Shown piece after piece: positions 1 through 50,724 of a stretch of 64,000 nucleotides of DNA. The notes under the pieces were generated by a model. That model saw only the letters and a list, made by a program, of their open reading frames with translations, searched no databases and had not been told where the DNA came from. The position numbers and the translations under genes are program-made. Position 1 is the stretch's first letter. Each line of letters begins with the position of its first letter. Source of the DNA: Escherichia phage VEc74; sequence record MT932213.1. One strand, given 5' to 3'.

Positions 1-2178
1 TTAGGCCGCAAGGGCCTTCATAGTTTTAGCGATTTGGGAAACTTCATCATCACTTAAAGAGTTGCGATAACCGATGAAGTCAGAAACAATACGGAATTTC
101 TTGGTAAACTCAGCAACCATTTTATCACTGTTTTTTGAAGCATTATTTGATAATACATCAAAAAGATTAGTTACTGTCCAGATGTCATGACCGATGGTAT
201 CTCTTCCACCATTAAAATATACACCCTGTAATGAACTAACCATATTAGCAAGTCGTGTATATTCTTCAGAAACTTCATCTACACTGAAGTACTTCATCAT
301 AAAATCTAACTCAGGATACTTGATAATTTTATCAATATATCGTTTAGCTGAACTTGAATAACCTACATACTTATCATAATCTACATCATCAAAAGCATCT
401 ACATATAAATCACGCAAAGCTTCAAAAATACATTGGCACTGACCGAGTTCTTTTACCTTTTTCTGTAAAAGCGGACGAATAACATAAAATTCATTAATTC
501 CAATAAGATTAGCCATACGAATCAAAATATTCATAGATGGATGACAAAGAGATGTAGTACCATCCATAGAGAAAATATCAGAACGATGCATATACGCTAC
601 ATAACCAGTAATTTCATCTGCTTCTGACGTAAGTGTAAATAGTTCCTCTTTTTCCCAACGCCCATCTTTAATTTCAAACTTAAATGCTGTAGCAGCTTTA
701 GGACGAGGAGCTTTACTTTTAACTACCTTTGGAATATAGCTTTTAACTAAAGCTTCAATTTCTGACAAATAATGAATGTTAACTTCATCACTTTCGAACA
801 TCGCCATAATATCAGGGAGTAAATCAATCTGCGATTCTACTTCTGGATTAATAAACAGAAGACGCTCATTGTGATGAATATTCAAAGTGTTATTAAATTC
901 ACTATCATCTAACGCACGTGCTAATCCACGGACAATATTAACACGATTTTTAATATCATCAATAACGATATTAATTTTTGTTGTATTAATACCAAACAGA
1001 CGATAGCTTGATGCAACGGCTGAAGTTTCATGGCTTTGCTTAATACGTTTCAGCCGAGGGTCAAGATTTACTTCATACACAACTCCTGCATTGCATAACT
1101 TACTATCAGGTTCAAACATGCTCTGCATCTTTTTATATGACAGATTTTTAGTCGTGAATTTGACTGAATTACTAATCATATAATCTCGAGCAGAATACCC
1201 CATCTTCATCAATTCACGATATGTATGACGAGGAGATGTAGATTCTTTAAATCGTTTTACATCTTCATTAAATGCTTTCTCACTGAGTTCTTTAACTCGT
1301 TCAATAATATTTTTACGAGTACGATCATCCAGTGAAAGAGCCTCGCGAGATGGAGCAATATCAAGTGAACCCATTGGAAACTTAATGTAATTCACTTCAT
1401 TGCGAATGCTTAGCCAGTTACGGTCTCTAATAACACCATCGATAGGATAAACAATACCGCCGTAGATAGCATACAATCCACCACGATCAGGCCAGTATCT
1501 TTCTGGATTTACGCCGTAATAATCATCGAAATCCGGAAAATAATCAATTTCGCGGTCAAGACCATTAATGATAGCCAAATCTTTGAACGGTCGCATGATA
1601 TAAGAAACTTCATAAGCAAAGTTTCTAAAGTCTTTTTCTTCAACTGGAACTACGATTTCAATACCAGTTTTATCATCTGGACCCATTTCTTTTACGAATG
1701 TAGGTTTAATTTGTGGACCATCGCCATCCATGTAAGCTACATAACCACGAATTTCACCTTTATGATATGAAGTAATACTAAACGTATCAGTATAACTAAA
1801 CGGAGATTTAGAACCTAAACCAAATCCGCCAATAAAGTCATTAGATTCAGCTTTAGATGAACTGAAGTATGAATTATACAGACCAGGAGAATTATCATCA
1901 CCTTGAATATCAAAATCACTCATACCCGGACCAAAATCTCGGCAAACAAATCGCGGGTCTAATCGTCCTGGAACTTGAATGATAAATTTTTCAGGATTTC
2001 CATTGAGAGCATGGGCATCAATCATGTTAGTAATCAATTCACGGACTACTGCGCGAATCTTGTTTGTATACAAATCAGATGACAGAATTTTAAATACTTT
2101 AGGAGATGCTGTGATGCTAAATGCTTTTGATTTAGAACCATTACCAAGAATTGTTTCTTTTTCAGTGGTGATAATCAT
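1..2178 (-). CDS. rIIA: rIIA protein (rapid-lysis / exclusion locus)
   Basis: 725-aa ORF whose stop codon is at the window edge; length and position directly upstream of the gene 39 region match T-even rIIA. Confidence 0.85.
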
Positions 2179-2188
2179 AATTTCCTCA

Positions 2189-2392
2189 TTAATTCATATT
2201 ACGTTTAATAACTTCGGCAACTTCTAGTAGTTCATCTTTAGTTGCAGTGTCGGATTGAATTTTATCTCTAATATCTTTAAAGCGGTTTTTAAATTCTTCG
2301 GCTTCTCCCATATCGAAAAAGCGTTGAATGATTCTATATTCTCGATGAACTGCTTTATCAAAAAGTTCTAAATTTACTTTATATGATTTCAT
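2189..2392 (-). CDS. small hypothetical protein (rIIA.1 position)
   Basis: 67-aa ORF between rIIA and gene 39, same strand, preceded by an early promoter. Confidence 0.5.
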
Positions 2393-2417
2393 TTCAATAT
2401 CCTCATTTGCCCAATTA

Positions 2418-2447
2418 ATTATACCACATCCTTGTGGTAAAGTAAAC
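2418..2447 (-). promoter_or_regulatory. T4-type early (sigma70) promoter
   Basis: minus-strand GTTTAC, 17-bp spacer, TGGTATAAT extended -10, 26 nt upstream of the 2392 start codon. Confidence 0.6.
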
Positions 2448-4264
2448 TACTGGCTCATCCATTCTTTGCGAAGGTCAGCATTATCTCCCATGAGCATTTC
2501 AAAAAGCTCTTTCCAGTTCTCAGGAAGTTTAACAACATCATATACTGGGTTTTGAATCATCTCACGATATTCAGATTTTTCCAAAGAGCCAAGTCCTTTA
2601 ATATAACGGATGCTATGTTTAGGTAGAGCATCTTTGGCACTCTCATATTCAGCGACTGTATAAAACCATTCTTGTTTTTTACCGACCTGAGCGATGATTA
2701 CAGGAGTTTTGACAAAGCGAATTCGTCCTTGCTCAAACAGTTCTGGCCAATTACTAAAAAATCCGAGCAGAGAAGGATAAATGCTTCCTAGACCATCATG
2801 GTCAGCATCAGTCATAATAGCAATATTATGATAATTCAAGTTTTCAGCTTTTTCACCAAGAACTAATCCAGTGATTGCGCAAATATCAAATAGTTCTTTG
2901 TTTTTAAGCATATCTGCATAAGACATACCCCAACTGTTGAGAACTTTACCACGCAATGGATAACCACCGTGAAGTTCTTTATCACGAACATCAATAAGAT
3001 ATCCGATAGCCGAATCACCCTCAGTCAAGAAAAGAGTAGTGTCAGCATCTTTACCACAAAGATTCGCTTTGATATGTTTATGAACCTTAGCTTTAGAAGC
3101 CTTTTTAGCTGCTTTAGTTTCTGCTGCTTTTTCTGCCGCCAATTTACGAGCCAAAGCAGCTTCAATAATCGGCATTAGAATTGCTTCATTATTTAGAATA
3201 GCACGTGAAATCTTTTTAGCATCAAGTTGAATATGACTACGAATTTCGCCAAATGGAGAAGTCAAACGCTCTTTAGTTTGAGAATCAAATCGCATGTTTT
3301 TCATATCACGGACAAACATAACGATAGTCAAACATTCTTTGACACGCGCTTTAGTCACATCAATTTTGAACTTACGTTTGATTTGTGGAATAAGGTCTTC
3401 ACAAATATCATCCATAACACAGTCAATATGATGGCCACCATTCTTAGTATGAATGTTATTCACATAAGTTAATTGACGAAAACCATCCGGTGAACGACCA
3501 ACCGCAATAGAACAATTTTCTTGTTCTTGAACAATAGCATGTTCATCATACTGTCGTGCATATTTCTTAAAATTACCCTGAACCTTTTTACCATTAAAGG
3601 TAAATTGAATATCAGGATAAACAACAGCAAGTGTCTGGAGACGATCTAATGTAATGTCAAGATAAACTTGGGACAGCTCATTAGTTTCAAATGACATAAA
3701 ATCAGGAATGAAAGTAACACGAGTTCCTTTCCATTTTCCAGGAATATCTTCCCATGATTTATTTTCCATGCCATTTGAACAACGAACTACAATATTATTT
3801 TGACCGTCGCCAGTTTCACCGACAAACATCACAGAAAAAATGTTTGTCAAACTAGAACCAACACCATTCATACCGCCAGTGACGCGCTCTTTATCATCAC
3901 CGAAGTTACCACCTGCTTTTGGAATAGTCCATGCGGCAACAGGACCAGGAATTTCTTCACCGGTAGGTGTTTTAACCATCGCCTGTGGAATACCACGACC
4001 GTTATCTTCAACTGTTACTTGATTGTTTTTAATAGTAACATTAATTTTATTTGCGAATTTAAACTTAGTACGAATACCTTCATCTACTGAGTTATCGATA
4101 ATTTCATCAATAAGCTTAACAAGACCAGGTACATACTGAACACTTTCCCATTTACCAAACAGAAAGCGCTCATGCATTTCATTAGCTGAAGAGCCAATGT
4201 ACATGCCGCTACGCTTTTTGATATGTTCAATATCGCTCAGAATTTTAATTTCATTCTTAATCAT
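2447..4264 (-). CDS. 39: DNA topoisomerase II large (GyrB-like ATPase) subunit, continuous gene 39+60 form
   Basis: 605-aa ORF with GHKL ATPase and TOPRIM-like motifs; uninterrupted, unlike the split 39/60 arrangement of T4; ATG is the second codon of the tracked ORF. Confidence 0.9.
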   Translation of the reverse strand: MIKNEIKILSDIEHIKKRSGMYIGSSANEMHERFLFGKWESVQYVPGLVKLIDEIIDNSVDEGIRTKFKFANKINVTIKNNQVTVEDNGRGIPQAMVKTPTGEEIPGPVAAWTIPKAGGNFGDDKERVTGGMNGVGSSLTNIFSVMFVGETGDGQNNIVVRCSNGMENKSWEDIPGKWKGTRVTFIPDFMSFETNELSQVYLDITLDRLQTLAVVYPDIQFTFNGKKVQGNFKKYARQYDEHAIVQEQENCSIAVGRSPDGFRQLTYVNNIHTKNGGHHIDCVMDDICEDLIPQIKRKFKIDVTKARVKECLTIVMFVRDMKNMRFDSQTKERLTSPFGEIRSHIQLDAKKISRAILNNEAILMPIIEAALARKLAAEKAAETKAAKKASKAKVHKHIKANLCGKDADTTLFLTEGDSAIGYLIDVRDKELHGGYPLRGKVLNSWGMSYADMLKNKELFDICAITGLVLGEKAENLNYHNIAIMTDADHDGLGSIYPSLLGFFSNWPELFEQGRIRFVKTPVIIAQVGKKQEWFYTVAEYESAKDALPKHSIRYIKGLGSLEKSEYREMIQNPVYDVVKLPENWKELFEMLMGDNADLRKEWMSQ

Positions 4265-4291
4265 CACTTATCCTCGTTTGGTTTCGGGAAT

Positions 4292-4317
4292 ATTATACTC
4301 CGGTAATCATAAAGCTA
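4292..4317 (-). promoter_or_regulatory. middle-promoter candidate (MotA box TAGCTTTA, 12-bp spacer, TATAAT)
   Basis: minus-strand TTTAGCTTTATGATTACCGGAGTATAAT about 28 nt upstream of the gene 39 ATG. Confidence 0.35.
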
Positions 4318-4334
4318 AAGGCCCGAAGGCCTTT
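4317..4334 (-). terminator. GC hairpin (GGCC-UUCG-GGCC) followed by a U-rich tract
   Basis: inverted repeat aaaggcc cgaa ggccttt immediately 3' of the 4334 stop codon. Confidence 0.45.
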
Positions 4335-4603
4335 TATTTAAAACGAATAGTTGAATCCTTAAAGAACAGCCCAGAACATACTGTTCCTTCTACTTTCTGC
4401 CCGGTAGGTCCAATAGCACGAAATCCAGTATGCTGGAAATCATTTTCAGAGCAACCGAACCAATTATATCCAGTGATTTCAATATTAGTAAAACCACTTG
4501 AAGACAAAACTTTAGTTGCATTATCAGCATCAGTACATCCTACTAAAGACACTGCTAATACTAATGCTGCGATAGAACGATTAATATATTTCATAATTTT
4601 CAC
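4334..4603 (-). CDS. predicted lipoprotein
   Basis: 89-aa ORF with signal peptide and lipobox (LVGC). Confidence 0.5.
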   Translation of the reverse strand: MKIMKYINRSIAALVLAVSLVGCTDADNATKVLSSSGFTNIEITGYNWFGCSENDFQHTGFRAIGPTGQKVEGTVCSGLFFKDSTIRFK

Positions 4604-4971
4604 TTAAATTTAATGGCTTGAAGAAGACTAATAACTCTCAAGCGACTTCTTTCATCTTTAACTGTAAAGGAAAGAGGGTCACCAGATTTCATAGTGATAG
4701 TACATGCAAAATCAAAATCTTCTGTGACTTCTTCGAAGAAGTCAAATTCTTCATCATAAATTAGAACACTACTTTGCAGACTGTGAAGAGTTTTTCCAGC
4801 ATTTCCAGATGCTGTACCAATCATTGTAACATTATGACCTTTCATATCTTCAACGATAAATTCACTAGTCAATATTACAGCATTAATAGAACTATTCCTA
4901 TTACTAGCAGAAAGTAGAAATTTCTGTTCTTCACCTTCGCGAATACGATATTTCTTATCCATTTTAAACAT
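4600..4971 (-). CDS. hypothetical protein
   Basis: 123-aa ORF, start overlaps the stop of the upstream gene. Confidence 0.45.
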   Translation of the reverse strand: MFKMDKKYRIREGEEQKFLLSASNRNSSINAVILTSEFIVEDMKGHNVTMIGTASGNAGKTLHSLQSSVLIYDEEFDFFEEVTEDFDFACTITMKSGDPLSFTVKDERSRLRVISLLQAIKFK

Positions 4972-43246: not shown

Positions 43247-43425
43247 TTAGAAATAGACTTTTCGCCGTTAGAATAATAAACTTCGAGTTTAGCACGATTA
43301 TTTTTAATTTGAATAACCTTGGCTGTCATCAAAGTTCCATACCCATAGTAAACTGCAACTTCATCACCTACATATACCGCGCTTCCGCGATAATCATGGA
43401 TATAATCAGTTCCTTCGAGCATCAT
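43210..43425 (-). CDS. hypothetical protein
   Basis: 71-aa ORF. Confidence 0.4.
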   Translation of the reverse strand: MMLEGTDYIHDYRGSAVYVGDEVAVYYGYGTLMTAKVIQIKNNRAKLEVYYSNGEKSISKWKYGDCMVKLG

Positions 43426-43685
43426 TTAAAGTATTCCCGCAATTGGTCAAATCCACCAATATGACTTCCATCAGGAGCAAATACCTGGGGCATTGTCAAG
43501 CCGATTTGAGTATCACGACCTAGTTTAGTCAGAAGCTCAGCGATTTTCTCATCATCAAAAACACCTTTTTCCGGCATAATGTTGATAAATTCAAACGGCT
43601 GTTTCTTCACGGTCAAAAGACGTTTTGCATTATCGCAATACACACATTTATGAATGTTGCTATCATAACCATATACTTTAAACAT
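43422..43685 (-). CDS. nrdC: glutaredoxin/thioredoxin NrdC
   Basis: 87-aa ORF with a CVYC active site; T4 NrdC is 87 aa. Confidence 0.8.
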   Translation of the reverse strand: MFKVYGYDSNIHKCVYCDNAKRLLTVKKQPFEFINIMPEKGVFDDEKIAELLTKLGRDTQIGLTMPQVFAPDGSHIGGFDQLREYFK

Positions 43686-43686
43686 A

Positions 43687-43929
43687 TTATTCCTTAATTC
43701 CTAGTACTTGTTTAAAAGTCTCGTCGTAATCAAGACTTTGGCCCGTTTGTTCTTTATGTTTGTATATAATATCACTTACTTCTGATAGCATATTTTTATA
43801 TGAACGAGTTAAAGCAGATTTAAGCACGCTGTATCTATCAGGAAATTTACCATGTTCATTATAATAAGCTATTGCTAATTCACGGACTGCCTTTTCAGCA
43901 GTCTCCATATATTCTTTACGCTTGGTCAT
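43687..43929 (-). CDS. hypothetical protein
   Basis: ORF from the internal ATG (MTKRKEY); the tracked extension overlaps the upstream gene. Confidence 0.4.
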
Positions 43930-44230
43930 TTTCTTCTCGGTCAAATCGGTGTTTACAATGGCGACATTTATAACGAAGATTATTAGTCTGCCAATGGACC
44001 AATTGCACCTGTTCAGTTCCACATTCAGGGCAATTAGGAACGTTTTTAGAAGCGCGTTCGCGGCGTTCAACCATGACCATTACAGAATCCCAATTAATAG
44101 GGCTGCTATAATCATCACAACCATGAATCTTTCCACGCATTTCCAAATCGTCTTCTTCACCAGCCATAATAATTTTAATTAGACTAGAATTACTTGAAGC
44201 TGCAATGTCTTCTAATAGACGCTTTTTCAT
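43916..44230 (-). CDS. zinc-ribbon protein
   Basis: 104-aa ORF with CPEC...CRHC. Confidence 0.45.
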
Positions 44231-45153
44231 TTCAATACCTCAATAGCATTACGTAAACCATTTGCTTTTGCATTAAGAGCTTTTAACAATTTGGTGTGTT
44301 CTGCAATTTGGGCTTCAACTTCAATCAAACGAGCATTGAGATATTCGCGTTCTTCTTTCATAGTATCATTCCCATGATTGGATTTTGGCGTAGGTTTAAA
44401 TTCACTAGGGTCCTTTAATTTAATAACAAATTTAGTTTCAAACAGTGAAAGACCATAATTCGTATTATCATCAAAGGATTTGACTACATCCATATCAGAT
44501 AATAACACGCGCAAATTATAAGCCAAAGAACTAATAGTTTCGTTATGTTTATTAGCTTCGCGTGGTTTCATATATGGAAGATTTTTATATATCTCGTGCG
44601 GAGCACAAATGATAATTGACAATTCAAATTGTCCATTTTGGGATGATGGAGTGAATTTAGCCGTAACCCAGTCTTTTACATTCACATTAATAGTACGGTT
44701 ATCACCATGACAAAACAGTCTACGAGAATGCTTAAAAAGCATATTCACGTTATTATTGAATTCGTGTGAAAATTCACTAGCAAATTTTTCTTTACTATCT
44801 TTAGAAAACCATTCTTCTAAATAAGTTCTTTTCACGTCGTTAATAATATTAAATGTAACAACACTAGCATTTGATACATTAGTCTCAATGTAGTTTGGAT
44901 ACATAAATTTTTTAACATTATTAACAGCTATCACAGAAGATAGTAATCGGGAACGTTTGAACCACTCGAGCAAAGAACCAAGAGAATGTGAATACGCATT
45001 TTGTGTATCTTTACAAATATGGTTTTCCCATCCAATATAGTCTAAAAAATCACGAAGAATATTATTGATTACTGCTCTGTGTCCGATCTGATAATTACGG
45101 TGTTTAGTAATAAGACTGTCAAAATAATCAATATAATGTTTACGAGTTTTCAT
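44227..45153 (-). CDS. hypothetical protein, member A of a four-gene tandem paralog family (C-terminal coiled coil)
   Basis: 308-aa ORF; shares central and C-terminal heptad-like motifs with the next three ORFs. Confidence 0.55.
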   Translation of the reverse strand: MKTRKHYIDYFDSLITKHRNYQIGHRAVINNILRDFLDYIGWENHICKDTQNAYSHSLGSLLEWFKRSRLLSSVIAVNNVKKFMYPNYIETNVSNASVVTFNIINDVKRTYLEEWFSKDSKEKFASEFSHEFNNNVNMLFKHSRRLFCHGDNRTINVNVKDWVTAKFTPSSQNGQFELSIIICAPHEIYKNLPYMKPREANKHNETISSLAYNLRVLLSDMDVVKSFDDNTNYGLSLFETKFVIKLKDPSEFKPTPKSNHGNDTMKEEREYLNARLIEVEAQIAEHTKLLKALNAKANGLRNAIEVLK

Positions 45154-45207
45154 GTTCTTCTCACTTGGTTAATGGTTTATACTCCGAGCCATCCTTGGCT
45201 TTAAATT

Positions 45208-46209
45208 TTACTTAATTAACTGTAAAGCTTGTTCAAGACGATCCAGGCGATTAACAGATTCTTCCCAAATCCTTTTAGCCTGCTCATATTCTTTCTGCGC
45301 TTTGTTAGAAATTTCTAGAACTTCTTTATAAGCTTTTTCTAGTGCAATAACTTCTGGACGAATTTCTACCGGTTCAGGTGAATCATCAAGATTATCCATT
45401 AGTTCCTCAAGGGTAGTTTCTTCTTTAGGAGTATTCACAATTTCATCACATTTTTGTTGGTAAATTTCTTTATCAGTAGGTGAATAAGCACATTTCACTT
45501 CACGAAGACTAATTACAATTTTATATCCTTCCCAGCCGCACATATTCTTAAAAGGATATGTATGAATATTTTCTACTGTTTCCATACAAAGTAATGCGGT
45601 CTCTAATTGACGAGTTATAGTGCTAGCAATTGAGAAAAATTTATTAATATTCTTTTGGTTAGCTTCTGGTGTAAAAAATCCATAATTCACAAAAATAGAT
45701 ACTTTATTTTTATCAAGTTCATATTCTTTTATGATAATCATATCAGAAGCCAAAGGATGAATTTGACGATAATCGCCATAACATAATTTAGAAGCTGATT
45801 TTAGAATTTGCTTCTTAAAAAGTCTGAAATTACTAATCCAACGACGAGTAAAAATATTCTCAGGGTCTTCTTTGACATTAAGATGATAAGAATTAACATC
45901 ACCGAACCAATTATATCCTACTACATCTTTGGTTCGTTTAATTTCTTTCCCAAAATTACCAAGAATATCCCGATTAACCAAATATGAAAGAAGACGAGAC
46001 TCTTTAAAGGTTTTCTTGATAACATCTTTATCTACACGGCTAGAAATTTTACGAATTTCATGAATAAATTTAGTAGAAGAAACAATACTTGCATCAACAC
46101 TATTGAGCCACTGATTGATAATAGAAATAACGCTATTTTGGCCAAACATCGGTATAGCTTTACCATCAATAACGCTATTGAATGATTTGATATATTCGTT
46201 ACGAGTCAT
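45208..46209 (-). CDS. hypothetical protein, paralog family member B
   Basis: 333-aa ORF from the ATG (MTRNEY); the tracked TTG extension lies inside the promoter. Confidence 0.55.
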   Translation of the reverse strand: MTRNEYIKSFNSVIDGKAIPMFGQNSVISIINQWLNSVDASIVSSTKFIHEIRKISSRVDKDVIKKTFKESRLLSYLVNRDILGNFGKEIKRTKDVVGYNWFGDVNSYHLNVKEDPENIFTRRWISNFRLFKKQILKSASKLCYGDYRQIHPLASDMIIIKEYELDKNKVSIFVNYGFFTPEANQKNINKFFSIASTITRQLETALLCMETVENIHTYPFKNMCGWEGYKIVISLREVKCAYSPTDKEIYQQKCDEIVNTPKEETTLEELMDNLDDSPEPVEIRPEVIALEKAYKEVLEISNKAQKEYEQAKRIWEESVNRLDRLEQALQLIK

Positions 46210-46237
46210 AATAATCTCCTCAGTAGAAAGTAAGAAC

Positions 46238-46267
46238 ATTATACCACATCCTTGTGGCAAAGTAAAC
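46238..46267 (-). promoter_or_regulatory. T4-type early promoter
   Basis: GTTTAC, 17 bp, TGGTATAAT; near-identical to the promoter at 2418-2447. Confidence 0.6.
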
Positions 46268-47286
46268 TAGTTCAGTGCATTTAGTGCATTGTTCAGTTTA
46301 GAACGTTGCTTTGTCAGATTTTGAACCCTTGACTGAGCTTGTTCTAACGCCTTTTCAGCTTCTAACACTTCATTGGTCGCTTTAACGAGTTCATCATCTA
46401 CTGCCTTAAGGGACTTCTCAATCGCATCCGCGTGCCATTTTTCAACAGGTTTAAGACTCGGATTTTCAATAGGAAGAAAATTCACTTTATTGAATTTCCA
46501 TGCATCTTTATTACCTGAACTATACATCCAAAATTTAGGATCATTTGACGAGTAATTAGATAAATTTAAGTTATCTTGCACTTCCTGCTTTTTCTCTTGC
46601 GGGACTTCGTCCTTTCTCAAAAAATCGTATTTAAATGAAACGATCATATCAAGTTCATATGATGTTGTATCTAACTTAAATCGTTCAAAACGAGGTAAAA
46701 TCTTAGATTGAACAGCAGCAACAACATCCATATACTTAAATGCTTCTGTCAACTGTGATTTAAGGCATTCACAAATTGAAAGAGAATTTTTTGTATTAGG
46801 TTTAAAGCTAATTCGTGCAGTTCTATTATTTTCTTTTAACGGTCTTACTTCCATCTGAAGAGTATAACCATCAAATTTCAGATTCTTTAAGTTAATATCA
46901 GAGCCTTTTAATCGACTAGCAGTAGACAAAATTTGCTTTAATTGTCTACGGAACAGAGCAATAAATCTCCATTCAATACGATAATGATTTGGATTGAAAA
47001 ATCCAGATGATAAATCGACCTTACTTTGACCAACGCCTTGAACAAATAGAGGATTTTTATAATCAATAGTTTTACAGAAATCGGTGAGCTGCTCACGAGC
47101 AGTCATTTGTGTAATATACCCCGCTTTATTAAAATGACGTAACCATTCACTGCTATTCATATATTTAAAGTGAATATCACGATTAACTTTATCAGGGTCT
47201 AAATTATTTTGGCACAAAAATGTCATAACATCACGAGTATAGCTGGCATTACGAACCATATCTTCAATTTGAGAACGAGTTTTCAT
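46267..47286 (-). CDS. hypothetical protein, paralog family member C
   Basis: 339-aa ORF. Confidence 0.55.
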   Translation of the reverse strand: MKTRSQIEDMVRNASYTRDVMTFLCQNNLDPDKVNRDIHFKYMNSSEWLRHFNKAGYITQMTAREQLTDFCKTIDYKNPLFVQGVGQSKVDLSSGFFNPNHYRIEWRFIALFRRQLKQILSTASRLKGSDINLKNLKFDGYTLQMEVRPLKENNRTARISFKPNTKNSLSICECLKSQLTEAFKYMDVVAAVQSKILPRFERFKLDTTSYELDMIVSFKYDFLRKDEVPQEKKQEVQDNLNLSNYSSNDPKFWMYSSGNKDAWKFNKVNFLPIENPSLKPVEKWHADAIEKSLKAVDDELVKATNEVLEAEKALEQAQSRVQNLTKQRSKLNNALNALN

Positions 47287-47294
47287 GGTGTTCC

Positions 47295-48209
47295 TTAAGA
47301 TTTAAGTAAATCAACAATTTTAATTAACTTTTCACGCTCAGATTTAGCTTTACTACTCAATCCGGATAGTCTGAAAATTTCATCGTCATATTGTTGAATA
47401 GAAATATTCAGCTCTTCAATTTGCTTATTAAAATAATCAATTTGTTCAGAATGTTTTTCGTTACTACGAACTGGTACAGGTTTTGTAGGCAATTTAGTTA
47501 AACTGGATTCATCCGGGCGATAAATTAAAATGCAATTTGAACCAATAGGGCATTTTGCACCAGATGAATATTCTAATGTTCCGGCTTCTTTTAAAACTTC
47601 AAAAGCTAAACAGAGATGATGCCCCATATTGACATAATCTGTAGAGTGAGCGCTGACGTAATAATCATCTCCACGAGTACTAAATTTAAAGCATTTAAGG
47701 TCTTCTGTATTATTAGTTTTAAAAATCATTTGTTTATCTAGACCTTTAGCCAATCGAGCGCCTAATGCTAATAATCGTCGTTGATTTTCCCACAAATCCG
47801 CAATCATTTGGTCGAATGATAATTTCGGCATTAGTCGACCATAAAGGTCGTATCCTTTATTATAATTGCGAAGGATTTCACTCGCATTAATACGAGACAA
47901 TGCTCCAATTTTATTAAGGGCTTTCATAATGCGATTAGATAAACTCATTCCAGACCCGTTTGTTCGCTGTAAATGTTTTTCTAATCCAAATCCAATATCA
48001 ACTTTAAATTTATCTAAAATTTCAGCATGAACATCTCTGTCAATAACATTCAAATCCAAAGTTGGGTTAAATCTATGAAAAAATTTATCTGGCTCTCCAC
48101 GACGAAATACAGTCCATTCATTCATCATTTTTTTATTAACTAAAGATTTAATTACTGCATTGACATTATTAATTACTACTGACATATTTTCCTCACTCAA
48201 TTTTACCAA
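47295..48209 (-). CDS. hypothetical protein, paralog family member D
   Basis: 304-aa ORF. Confidence 0.55.
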   Translation of the reverse strand: MVKLSEENMSVVINNVNAVIKSLVNKKMMNEWTVFRRGEPDKFFHRFNPTLDLNVIDRDVHAEILDKFKVDIGFGLEKHLQRTNGSGMSLSNRIMKALNKIGALSRINASEILRNYNKGYDLYGRLMPKLSFDQMIADLWENQRRLLALGARLAKGLDKQMIFKTNNTEDLKCFKFSTRGDDYYVSAHSTDYVNMGHHLCLAFEVLKEAGTLEYSSGAKCPIGSNCILIYRPDESSLTKLPTKPVPVRSNEKHSEQIDYFNKQIEELNISIQQYDDEIFRLSGLSSKAKSEREKLIKIVDLLKS

Positions 48210-48594
48210 TTACGCGGAATAAGATTGAACAGACTATATAAGTACCACATATAGATTGAACTAATGCCATTCCAAAGAACCAAACAATATTATCAAACCA
48301 TGTCTGTTTTACGTCGAAAGGACGTAAACTTACAGTAATATTATCACCTTTTTCTATTGATGAATACATCTCTGGGGAAATATATTCGCTAAATCTATAA
48401 CCGTCTTTGAGTTCATATACAGCAATAAACGATAAACTAGACCCCTTTCCTTGAGTTCCTGTAAGGGTATTAACTACAGTAACATCATAATCTTTATAAT
48501 GCATATAATCATTAATAGCATAATAACCATATGCAACTACTACACATAAACAGCATATCAATAAATTCAATCTTTTAATTATCAACTGTTTCAT
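48193..48594 (-). CDS. membrane protein
   Basis: 133-aa ORF with N- and C-terminal hydrophobic segments. Confidence 0.5.
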   Translation of the reverse strand: MKQLIIKRLNLLICCLCVVVAYGYYAINDYMHYKDYDVTVVNTLTGTQGKGSSLSFIAVYELKDGYRFSEYISPEMYSSIEKGDNITVSLRPFDVKQTWFDNIVWFFGMALVQSICGTYIVCSILFRVIGKIE

Positions 48595-48623
48595 AATAAT
48601 CTCAATTAAAAGGGCTTAGAACC

Positions 48624-48648
48624 ATTATACCATCCTTAGTATAAAGCG
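48624..48648 (-). promoter_or_regulatory. middle-promoter candidate (CGCTTTA box, TGGTATAAT)
   Basis: box, 12-bp spacer, and extended -10 upstream of the 48594 start. Confidence 0.3.
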
Positions 48649-48649
48649 G

Positions 48650-49177
48650 TTATGCGAGTACCGTCTTTAACCGTTCTTCAAACTTCCGAAGAGTATTCTG
48701 GCGTTCAGCTCTTTGCTTTTTGTAAGTTTCGATACGCTCTGAAATGAGAGTGTATCGTTCATTTACTGATTCTTTCATAAAATCAGGAATTTCACGAGAA
48801 GCTTTAATCTCGTCAAATTTATCAATAACAGCTTGCTCTTCAGCAATTAAGTTATCATACATCAAAATATCTTTCTTGATGAACTCAATATCTTCTTGAG
48901 TTACACGAGATAATTTAGATGCTTTATCCTTTTTGTACTGTTCGTTAGTATCACGAGACCAGTGTAATGTACGATTTTTATTCGTATTTTTGTAAATTTC
49001 TACAATACCAATCTCATCAATAATAACGATCCAATTCCAACGTGATTTGTAAATTTGTCCTCCATCAACAGTGATTTCACCTCCGATTGAGATGTCATTA
49101 AAGAACTTGCTTTGTGCTTCAGATTTAAATTTACCATCGTTGTAATTTACCAGGTTGAAAATATCTTTAGCGTTCAT
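48650..49177 (-). CDS. hypothetical protein
   Basis: 175-aa ORF. Confidence 0.5.
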   Translation of the reverse strand: MNAKDIFNLVNYNDGKFKSEAQSKFFNDISIGGEITVDGGQIYKSRWNWIVIIDEIGIVEIYKNTNKNRTLHWSRDTNEQYKKDKASKLSRVTQEDIEFIKKDILMYDNLIAEEQAVIDKFDEIKASREIPDFMKESVNERYTLISERIETYKKQRAERQNTLRKFEERLKTVLA

Positions 49178-49205
49178 TTTGTGTTCCTCCGTAGTTGATA
49201 GTTGT

Positions 49206-49235
49206 ATAGTACCACAGAGGAACAGTCTTGTAAAC
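49206..49235 (-). promoter_or_regulatory. T4-type early promoter
   Basis: GTTTAC, 17 bp, TGGTACTAT. Confidence 0.55.
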
Positions 49236-49237
49236 CA

Positions 49238-49552
49238 CTAAAAGAAACTTCTTTCACAATTTTTTCCACTGAACCACGCGCTCACTGCTTTCTTAGTCTC
49301 AGGAGCAGTGTTATCCATAAACCATTCAAAGGCAGCCTTTTTATGATTCTGGAGGGCTTCTCGGGCTTTAATCTGTTCACGGTCTATTAACACTAACATA
49401 TGAGCCTTTCTTGTCACCATGGGCTTCTTATGATTTTTTGAATATTCCCAATCATTTGTCCATCGCATCGTTGTTGCGAATTGAAGTACAGCTTCTTTAA
49501 TCTTAGTTTCGTAAATTTCACGAGCCTTTGAGTATAACATCACTACCTCCAT
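49238..49552 (-). CDS. hypothetical protein
   Basis: 104-aa ORF. Confidence 0.45.
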   Translation of the reverse strand: MEVVMLYSKAREIYETKIKEAVLQFATTMRWTNDWEYSKNHKKPMVTRKAHMLVLIDREQIKAREALQNHKKAAFEWFMDNTAPETKKAVSAWFSGKNCERSFF

Positions 49553-49641
49553 TTACCAGTTTAATTCTAGTCATCTTTTTAATGGCAGTCCATATAATCT
49601 ATTTCTGAACTGCCTTTTTGTCTTAGAAGGCCTCTTATGAA

Positions 49642-50610
49642 TTATTTCAGAAGAGTAACCTCAGCAATTTCTTCCCAACCGTTTTTGTCGGTCATAATAA
49701 AGTCAGCAAGATAAAGAGCAGTACGCAGTGAAACATTGCGTAAACGGTTAACATTGACTTTCATCCATGATAATGCTTTATAAGTTTCTTCATCAGAAAG
49801 ACCGCGCTTTTGCATCATGTCGGTTGAAAGAATAACATCTTCAACCCTGACCATAATTTCTTCATTAGTGTGAACACCCAAATCCAAATAAACTGAGCGG
49901 GACACTAATGCTTGTAAATGTGGAGCAAGTTTAGTACCACGGTCTAATTCGCGGTCAATATCAACGTTTGTGATAAAAACAATCGTTCCTTTAAATTCAA
50001 ACTCACGGTCAATGCCTTTTTCTTCTAAGTAAGAAGATGCAGTGCTCCAGCAGACTTTACGGGTCTCTCCAGTGTCCAGAGCAGCTTTCAGAAGATTAAG
50101 AATGTCCATATCAGAGAAAACATCCACATCATCAATCAAAAGGACAGAATTCTCTTCACGATTATTCCAAAGCTGCTCATAAAGACCGATACCCGAGATT
50201 TTACCATTGATGCTTTTATATTCAATGTATCCAATATCATTTGCTTTATTCAAAGCTTTATCTAAAGAATACGTTTTACCAATACCTGCTGCTCCCGAGA
50301 TAATTAATGAACGAATGTTTCCGTTAATAATACCATTCGTCATCATTCCCATAACATTAAATCTTTTATTAATGCGGGTTTTCATATCTTCATATGATTC
50401 TTTAACTTCTTCAACTTTTACACCATCATATGAAATGTCTGATTTGTAAACCCAAACACCGCGACGTTTACCATCAATTTCAACAAAAACTTTACCATCT
50501 CCTTGTGCATCTACCGGAGCATTATCTGGGAACCATTCGCCTAAGAGCTCAAAAGTTCCAGAGATTTCTTTACCGAAGTAGATACCCTTATTGATAGTTA
50601 CAGTTTTCAT
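49642..50610 (-). CDS. AAA+/P-loop ATPase
   Basis: Walker A GAAGIGKT and Walker B VLLIDDVD; start at the ATG (MKTVTI), the tracked start is a TTG. Confidence 0.6.
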   Translation of the reverse strand: MKTVTINKGIYFGKEISGTFELLGEWFPDNAPVDAQGDGKVFVEIDGKRRGVWVYKSDISYDGVKVEEVKESYEDMKTRINKRFNVMGMMTNGIINGNIRSLIISGAAGIGKTYSLDKALNKANDIGYIEYKSINGKISGIGLYEQLWNNREENSVLLIDDVDVFSDMDILNLLKAALDTGETRKVCWSTASSYLEEKGIDREFEFKGTIVFITNVDIDRELDRGTKLAPHLQALVSRSVYLDLGVHTNEEIMVRVEDVILSTDMMQKRGLSDEETYKALSWMKVNVNRLRNVSLRTALYLADFIMTDKNGWEEIAEVTLLK

Positions 50611-50644
50611 TTTATTCTCCAAATCTGTATCAGTTGATAGTTGT

Positions 50645-50674
50645 ATAGTACCATAAAGCTTTATGCTTGTAAAC
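50645..50674 (-). promoter_or_regulatory. T4-type early promoter (part of a PeSL-like unit)
   Basis: GTTTAC, 17 bp, TGGTACTAT. Confidence 0.55.
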
Positions 50675-50699
50675 AGTTTTGTGAAAAATTTTTGAAATA

Positions 50700-50722
50700 A
50701 AAAAAGGAGCCCGAAGGCTCCC
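50700..50722 (-). terminator. rho-independent terminator
   Basis: GGAGCC-UUCG-GGCUCC hairpin followed by a run of 7 U. Confidence 0.6.
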
Positions 50723-50724
50723 TA

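Follow-up and report, generated by a model that had tools for sequence, protein, structure and literature searches.

The window analysed here, that is, the whole stretch of DNA under study, is a 64,000 nt-long sequence from Escherichia phage VEc74 (sequence record MT932213.1), and we considered in particular a 3,983-bp interval of it that contains four consecutive open reading frames (ORFs) on the minus strand, which carries every gene in this part of the window. The window has about 96% nucleotide identity to T4, so that the phage is of the T4 type, and comparison with the T4 reference annotation (AF158101.6) identified the four ORFs as one-to-one orthologs of T4 nrdC.3-nrdC.6, with 90-97% amino acid (aa) identity between the proteins. 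The interval has matches in 506 phage records, and its identity to T4, T2, RB27 and related phages is 96-97%. We found that the four genes are true paralogs, i.e. diverged copies of one ancestral gene. In order of transcription (nrdC.6, nrdC.5, nrdC.4, nrdC.3) they are:

47295..48185, minus strand: nrdC.6 ortholog, first gene of the array, 296 aa (PF26899 Phage_T4_Y05B; phrog_2257)
46267..47286, minus strand: nrdC.5 ortholog, 339 aa (DUF7235/PF23882; phrog_2351), the published anti-Dsr1 counter-defence gene
45208..46209, minus strand: nrdC.4 ortholog, 333 aa (PF26897 Phage_T4_Y04OP; phrog_1435)
44227..45153, minus strand: nrdC.3 ortholog, 308 aa (phrog_1435; Pfam family shared with nrdC.4), at the end of the array

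The array is preceded by nrdC.7 (a 133-aa membrane protein), nrdC.8, nrdC.9 and nrdC.10 (AAA-type), and followed by nrdC.2, nrdC.1 and nrdC. An initial annotation of this DNA had placed it in the nrdC-tk accessory region, and the synteny with T4 confirms this placement. The same annotation had named one-to-one orthology to characterised T-even proteins as an outcome that would speak against its proposal, and such orthology does hold for nrdC.3-nrdC.6, with nrdC.5 already characterised. Part of the picture is therefore known: the T4 ORFs have long been described, the function of nrdC.5 is published and Pfam joins nrdC.3 with nrdC.4.

The initial annotation had also described four consecutive same-strand ORFs, and this description needed a correction only at one start codon. 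For nrdC.4, the ATG start of the 333-aa reading is backed by a GAGGAG ribosome-binding site and by the orthologs. For nrdC.6, the ORF (47295-48209) gives a 304-aa reading that begins at TTG. Because the ATG at 48185 is preceded by a GAGG ribosome-binding site, and because orthologs in several genera keep the N-terminus that begins at that ATG (M-S-x-x-I-N; MSVVINN in T4-like phages, MSQAIN elsewhere), we considered nrdC.6 as 296 aa rather than 304 aa in length. Judged in the same way, the nrdC.6 annotation of T4 in GenBank (275 aa) is probably about 21 aa too short.

Four collinear conserved blocks recur in the same order in all four proteins. Block 1 has the form F/L-K/N-K-x-x-x-L-S...L..F, block 2 ends with G-D/S-x-R/K, block 3 has the form L...L...MD-V-V and block 4 is the C-terminal helix. 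Block 2 is the recurring central motif already noticed in the initial annotation: in our profile alignments, the three strings quoted there and EFSHEFNNNVNMLFKHSRRLFCHG of nrdC.3 occupy the same columns. The positions of block 2 and of the C-terminal helical segments are the following:

47733..47810, minus strand: block 2 of nrdC.6, QMIADLWENQRRLLALGARLAKGLDK, residues 126-151 of 296, helix pair H124-133/H135-145 in the AlphaFold2 (AF2) model
46891..46971, minus strand: block 2 of nrdC.5, WRFIALFRRQLKQILSTASRLKGSDIN, residues 106-132
45766..45846, minus strand: block 2 of nrdC.4, RRWISNFRLFKKQILKSASKLCYGDYR, residues 122-148, helix pair H116-130/H132-142
44695..44775, minus strand: block 2 of nrdC.3, EFSHEFNNNVNMLFKHSRRLFCHGDNR, residues 127-153
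47298..47450, minus strand: C-terminal amphipathic helical segment of nrdC.6, residues 246-296, AF2 helices 243-272 and 278-295, heptad test weak
46270..46446, minus strand: C-terminal heptad-like helix of nrdC.5, residues 281-339, a/d score 0.85, reached by 3 of 300 shuffles, weak coiled-coil Pfam matches
45211..45357, minus strand: C-terminal long helix of nrdC.4, residues 285-333, AF2 helix 285-332
44230..44355, minus strand: C-terminal heptad-like helix of nrdC.3, residues 267-308, a/d score 0.85, reached by 6 of 300 shuffles

Heptads were evaluated with a crude a/d hydrophobic score compared with 300 shuffles. The K/E/A/L-rich C-terminal segments of the initial annotation are real, as they correspond to the long helices with which the AF2 models end, and their heptad-like character is clear in nrdC.3 and nrdC.5 but weak in nrdC.4 and nrdC.6. 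The models were produced from alignments for nrdC.4 and nrdC.6, with a predicted local distance difference test (pLDDT) value of 81.6 and 77.7, respectively. The predicted architecture of each protein consists of a variable N-terminal helical region, a conserved helix pair formed by block 2, a small core made of beta-hairpin, helix and beta-hairpin, a disordered linker and the C-terminal amphipathic helix, through which the proteins probably oligomerise.

Several independent lines of evidence indicate common descent, among them profile alignments performed with HHalign. The closest pair is nrdC.3 and nrdC.4 (97.9%, E 5e-13). The profiles of nrdC.4 and nrdC.5 match over nearly their whole length and are collinear over about 236 columns, with an E value of 1.6e-6 using small alignments and of 2.6e-4 using large ones, and the HHalign probability of this pair went from 90% to 42% when more close homologs were added. 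The four groups are connected through a syntenic intermediate, group S, represented by a single-copy gene encoding 324-352 aa that occupies the equivalent position in five genera. Its profile was built from five sequences (Jiaodavirus JD18, Moonvirus Merlin, Winklervirus CHI14, Karamvirus AS6 and Kanagawavirus PEi26) and matched nrdC.6 (96.4%, E 1.3e-9), nrdC.5 (96.8%, E 2.7e-10), nrdC.4 (90.2%, E 1.5e-6) and nrdC.3 (91.7%, E 7.7e-7) in alignments of 139-248 columns. The single protein of PEi26 is by itself a bridge between groups, since it matches nrdC.6 at 2.8e-6 and nrdC.5 at 2.2e-5.

As a control of specificity we considered all the coding-strand ORFs of at least 200 aa in seven loci, and the syntenic gene was the only clear profile match. 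The about 30 control ORFs gave mostly E > 0.02, with the exceptions of Yen9_6961 against nrdC.5 (0.001), Merlin_8010 against nrdC.4 (0.012) and Apost_10835 against group S (0.016). We also asked whether a 260-aa neighbour found upstream in other genera could be a fifth member of the family, and rejected this (E > 0.1).

Methods based on single sequences or on single profiles see less of this relationship. Raw pairwise BLASTP is marginal and decides nothing beyond the nrdC.3-nrdC.4 pair, the identity across groups being only 15-25%. Leave-one-group-out hidden Markov models (HMMs), built from mixed alignments, recovered nrdC.3 and nrdC.4, and did not recover nrdC.5 and nrdC.6 at a significant E value; mixed alignments dilute the signal in these models. 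When the nrdC.4 profile was run exhaustively with HMMER against 1.84 billion cluster representatives, only 7 proteins were returned, one of nrdC.3 type at 8e-7 and none of nrdC.5 or nrdC.6 type; therefore, the family is a narrow one, whose groups HMMER is unable to connect by itself.

The structural models agree with the profile alignments. Those of nrdC.4 and nrdC.6 have an identical order of structural elements. A Foldseek search of BFVD with the nrdC.4 model found an nrdC.3-type protein (5e-9) and the nrdC.6-type protein of JS10 (3.4e-5), and the two models have seven distant targets in common, in T4-like phages of Pectobacterium, Enterobacter, Acinetobacter, Erwinia and Yersinia.

One could argue that the resemblance among the ORFs is compositional or convergent, as AT-rich phage genes with coiled-coil tails may look alike in the absence of common descent. 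The marginal BLASTP scores of most pairs and the tendency of coiled-coil segments to attract spurious weak matches go in this direction. However, the alignments are collinear over 140-250 columns that include the non-coiled regions and the four ordered blocks, the matches through group S reach E values from 1e-6 to 3e-10 where control ORFs, apart from three, stay mostly above 0.02, and the Foldseek cross-matches agree with them. We consider this explanation as hardly credible and already largely refuted. The divergent paralogs of the initial annotation are hence confirmed by significant profile alignments, the absence of pairwise similarity, which it had foreseen as a contrary outcome, not being what we observed.

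As to the databases, nrdC.5 matches the DUF7235 (PF23882) model along its entire length (positions 1-307 of 307), with E 8e-122 and a score of 406.9 bits where the gathering cut-off is 30, and in the Pfam scan this match is absent from nrdC.3, nrdC.4 and nrdC.6, which are outside that Pfam family. Both nrdC.3 (1e-100) and nrdC.4 (2e-168) match phrog_1435 over the full length. PF26897 is the precomputed assignment of all the nrdC.4 homologs and of the nrdC.3-derived part of the fusion protein P0224 described below, and its name, Phage_T4_Y04OP, already joins the T4 nrdC.3 and nrdC.4 proteins. For nrdC.6 the match is to phrog_2257 (8e-152), with PF26899 as the precomputed assignment in 105 of 105 homologs. 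The claim that the proteins have no catalytic or known-domain signature holds in so far as we found in them no enzyme or catalytic signature and no named domain, but families of the DUF type do exist for them in Pfam (DUF7235/PF23882, PF26897 and PF26899). We propose that these three Pfam families, together with the three PHROGs, form one superfamily. Neither this link, nor the derivation from a single-copy ancestor, nor the conserved internal promoter described below was found in databases or in the searchable literature.

We found no relative of the array proteins in the PDB and no homolog outside T-even-like phages. Some homologs are named as proteins of Bacillus cereus, Enterococcus faecalis, Salmonella or E. 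coli, on contigs that are either about 167 kb long or tiny; these are almost certainly T4-like phage sequences in bacterial assemblies and not bacterial homologs. In Pfam and NCBIfam the array proteins have no match to thioredoxin or glutaredoxin. In hundreds of GenBank phage records the products of nrdC.2 to nrdC.11 (window 43400-50700) are labelled as 'thioredoxin', purely from the name of the locus, and nrdC.8 is discussed as a 'nucleotide reductase' in a 2026 paper on DRT1.

Two promoter-like elements lie inside the array:

46238..46266, minus strand: early-type sigma-70 promoter upstream of nrdC.4, (G)TTTACT, 17-nt spacer, TGgTATAAT
45176..45205, minus strand: putative degenerate copy of this promoter upstream of nrdC.3, TTTAAA, 18-nt spacer, TATAAA, recognised by sequence comparison

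The first (46266-46238) has 10 of 12 hexamer matches and an upstream TG. Its -35 (GTTTAC) and -10 (GTATAAT) elements do not vary among T4, Gaprivervirus RZ, Dhakavirus JS10 and Mosigvirus phi25-307, four genera among which the flanking proteins are only 30-50% identical, and in the record of phage fPS-65 a predicted early promoter is independently annotated at the same junction. On these sequence grounds, the array genes are predicted to be transcribed early, from T4 early promoters of the sigma-70 type, one of which is inside the array. The early promoter proposed in the initial annotation is thus present and conserved, but its division of the array into two transcription units is not supported: in a local sequence scan, the internal promoter was not preceded by any convincing terminator, and for this reason it is better considered as boosting the two distal genes. 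The second element failed our consensus scan. Its spacer, CCAAGGATGG..GGAG, resembles that of the JS10 and phi25-307 promoter, which suggests that the unit that was duplicated or imported may have included its promoter, gene and promoter moving together. At the other end of the array, nrdC.6 and nrdC.5 are separated by 8 nt and appear to be co-transcribed.

The order of the array genes is conserved among genera, and their copy number is variable. Tequatrovirus has four copies, of nrdC.6, nrdC.5, nrdC.4 and nrdC.3 type; Gaprivervirus and Dhakavirus have three, without the nrdC.3 type, and Mosigvirus phi25-307 also three, without the nrdC.4 type; ESCO47 has two, and five further genera have one. 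We consider it probable, jointly with the functional explanation given below and with the same moderate confidence, that the array arose by serial tandem duplication of one accessory gene of about 330 aa, of which other Tevenvirinae genera still have a single copy at this site, immediately before nrdC.2/nrdC.

Variation also exists within Tequatrovirus. Counts by identity bands indicate that, among about 500 records, roughly 30 lack nrdC.4. For nrdC.3 there are two allele classes, one with at least 90% identity (139 records) and one with about 61% (356 records), and the synonymous divergence (dS) of this gene from T4 is 0.23, compared with 0.07-0.15 in the neighbouring genes; this pattern suggests a mosaic replacement by recombination.

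A natural contraction of the array was observed in four contigs (among them the metagenomic T4-like phage contigs L016, at 3570-4900, and L017, at 1931-3261; protein P0224). In this variant nrdC.4 is deleted and nrdC.5 is split: an N-terminal ORF of 115 aa stands apart, and a stretch from about residue 146 to residue 270 continues in frame into nrdC.3 (junction KFNKVN|MLFKH), of which the part from the block 2 motif onward is retained. In fPS-65 all four genes are intact. Farther from T4, two Acinetobacter phage Acj61 proteins with adjacent accessions (E5E4A1 and E5E4A2 in BFVD) both match the nrdC.4 model, and in Yersinia phage fHe-Yen9-01 (L008 6961-7902 and 13947-14825) one member is clear and a second, beyond nrdC.10, is possible. 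Distant T4-like phages, hence, show signs of having reached a multi-copy state of the superfamily independently.

We also evaluated selection, using the Nei-Gojobori method over the whole gene on a single genome pair (window versus T4). The ratio of nonsynonymous to synonymous divergence (dN/dS) is 0.15-0.26 for the four array genes and 0-0.36 for their neighbours. The array genes are maintained by purifying selection, and the diversifying selection proposed in the initial annotation is unsupported at the level of the whole gene; the diversity of the array arises instead via duplication, loss and allele replacement.

The function of one member is known from experiments. Srikant, Guegler & Laub (eLife 2022, PMC9391042) worked with a T4 clone lacking some accessory genes, which fails on strain ECOR17. 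Deletion of dsr1 in ECOR17 restores infection, cloned dsr1 protects MG1655, and nrdC.5 alone (T4 allele), expressed from a plasmid, rescues the clone on hosts with Dsr1. The published cloning primers SS-45 and SS-46 match the window with 0 mismatches at 47265-47286 and 46267-46287, respectively; therefore, we considered the 339-aa ORF, which is syntenic with T4 nrdC.5 and has 96.8% aa identity to it, as the published anti-Dsr1 gene. The anti-defence role guessed in the initial annotation is correct for nrdC.5, which overcomes Dsr1 (PMC9391042), a published result that this annotation had missed, and for nrdC.3, nrdC.4 and nrdC.6 it is inferred from their kinship; in the literature searched we found no phenotype for these three genes. 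Dsr1 is a SIR2 NADase. Its tetratricopeptide repeat (TPR) sensor, of a kind in common with Avs7, is reported to be triggered by the phage major capsid protein (2026 preprint, PMC12803255).

On these bases, the explanation that we favour, with the moderate confidence stated above, is that the array is an early-expressed family of non-enzymatic defence inhibitors expanded from one gene. Precisely, its products would be stoichiometric binding proteins, made before the late proteins, that neutralise host immune sensors. NrdC.5 would bind Dsr1 directly, perhaps on the TPR sensor that recognises the major capsid protein, so that the depletion of NAD+ is prevented; the three paralogs would act likewise on other variants of Dsr1 or on other defence proteins; and the copy number in each phage would reflect the defences carried by its hosts. 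A more ambitious version would see NrdC.3-6 as modular early sensor blockers, each adapted by its variable N-terminus to its own clade of the highly diverse TPR-sensor proteins (Dsr1 variants, Avs7 and relatives with nuclease, kinase or NADase effectors, all of them detectors of the major capsid protein), and together as an 'antibody-like' repertoire that pre-empts capsid sensing, in which copy number and allele swapping, for example between the two nrdC.3 classes, set the host range. This version is speculative, and we regard it as doubtful.

Several points weigh against the explanation that we favour. An experimental phenotype exists only for nrdC.5, which may act by direct binding or otherwise. 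Aligned directly, nrdC.6 gives HHalign E values of 0.005-0.2 with nrdC.3, nrdC.4 and nrdC.5, which are non-significant alone, so that its link depends on the five-sequence group S and on Foldseek matches with low template modelling (TM) scores and high root mean square deviation (rmsd). The Foldseek cross-matches of the two models have probability 1.0, with TM-scores of only 0.3-0.5 and high rmsd; low TM-scores are expected for multi-part proteins with flexible linkers, and we considered the predicted folds as supporting and not decisive evidence. The weak heptad signal of nrdC.4 and nrdC.6 does not favour oligomerisation through the C-terminal helix, and the gene-wide positive selection often seen in arms-race genes is lacking in the genome pair considered.

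The first of these points leaves room for an alternative in which counter-defence is confined to nrdC.5, its three paralogs having drifted to unrelated early functions (host takeover, regulation) or being redundant copies in the course of being lost. The lack of a published phenotype for the other three, the 15-25% identity across groups, the nrdC.4 losses in Tequatrovirus records and in the natural variant, and the two copies with which ESCO47 manages all fit this alternative. Decay is argued against by the retention of each orthogroup in three or four genera; moreover, all four genes are under purifying selection and all four proteins have kept the architecture and the conserved blocks. We consider this alternative as rather unlikely.

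It could also be that the four proteins are subunits of one hetero-oligomeric complex, assembled via the C-terminal helices and with a single function, since all four end in long amphipathic helices and nrdC.6 and nrdC.5 are close and apparently co-transcribed. We judge this to be improbable: nrdC.5 supplied alone from a plasmid rescues the T4 clone when the host has Dsr1, one, two or three copies are enough in other genera, and nrdC.4 can be lost in nature. Even less probable, in our opinion, is that nrdC.5 and its relatives counter NAD+-depleting defences indirectly or enzymatically, for example through an effect on the trigger or on the metabolism of NAD+ or ADP-ribose, instead of binding the defence protein; the phages known to counter NADase defences metabolically through the NARP1/2 pathways provide a precedent.

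The defence-inhibitor explanation can be compared with known systems. The nearest is T4 NrdC.5 itself (Y05A; DUF7235): the ORF at 46267-47286 is this gene, and the other three ORFs share its architecture and four blocks, but belong to other Pfam and PHROG families and are its relatives at the level of the superfamily only. As regards mechanism, the closest analogue is DSAD1 of SPbeta-like Bacillus phages, which inhibits DSR2 and is, like nrdC.5, a phage protein that neutralises a defence-associated sirtuin NADase. It binds the sensor region of DSR2 in competition with the phage structural protein that acts as the trigger, and by analogy nrdC.5 may use the same mechanism. The two differ in that DSR2 is triggered by the tail tube protein and Dsr1 by the capsid protein and, unlike nrdC.3-nrdC.6, DSAD1 is not known as a tandem array of paralogs; no relationship between DSAD1 and the array was detected in sequence or structure, no search having been aimed at it. 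In T4, the dmd-tifA-adfA 'anti-TA island' (TA, toxin-antitoxin) and alt/alt.-1/alt.-2 are likewise early, dispensable and clustered in variable regions, being gained, lost or amplified according to the defences of the host. Those clusters consist of unrelated small proteins or of ADP-ribosyltransferase paralogs, whereas the array consists of one family of about 300 aa, non-enzymatic in appearance, in four copies. Tail terminator or tail completion proteins (lambda gpU-like) and the dimerisation domain of RNA polymerase alpha/Rpb11 are also among the systems considered for comparison.

Among the neighbouring genes, nrdC.2 (window 43916-44230, 104 aa) has a start that overlaps the stop of nrdC.3 by 4 nt and encodes a CPEC...CRHC zinc-ribbon motif, with weak PHROG matches to 'NrdC-like thioredoxin' and to Lar-like restriction-alleviation families. 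An ORF labelled nrdC.2 follows the array or the single-copy gene in JS10, VR26 and PEi26, and an unnamed short ORF is found downstream in other loci. On the other side, the AAA-type gene nrdC.10 (window 49642-50622) is extremely conserved, with matches in 1,311 phage records that include Vibrio, Aeromonas, Acinetobacter and jumbo phages. Ahead of it, in the region 50645-50723, there are a strong terminator hairpin (50723-50704) and a putative TTTACA-17-TACTAT promoter.

Although T4 serves as the reference for T-even phages, most of the accessory genes of its nrdC-tk region are without an assigned function, and nrdC.5 is the sole gene here that has been functionally characterised. Three separate Pfam and PHROG families are joined into one proposed superfamily, a systematic misannotation is flagged in hundreds of phage records, and three 'hypothetical proteins', often mislabelled as 'thioredoxin', become concrete candidates for counter-defence. 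The contrast between a variable N-terminus and a conserved core and C-terminal helix suggests that specificity may reside in the former. The result is unsurprising to a T4 specialist, but it offers a direct and cheap experimental route to the function of three conserved T-even genes.

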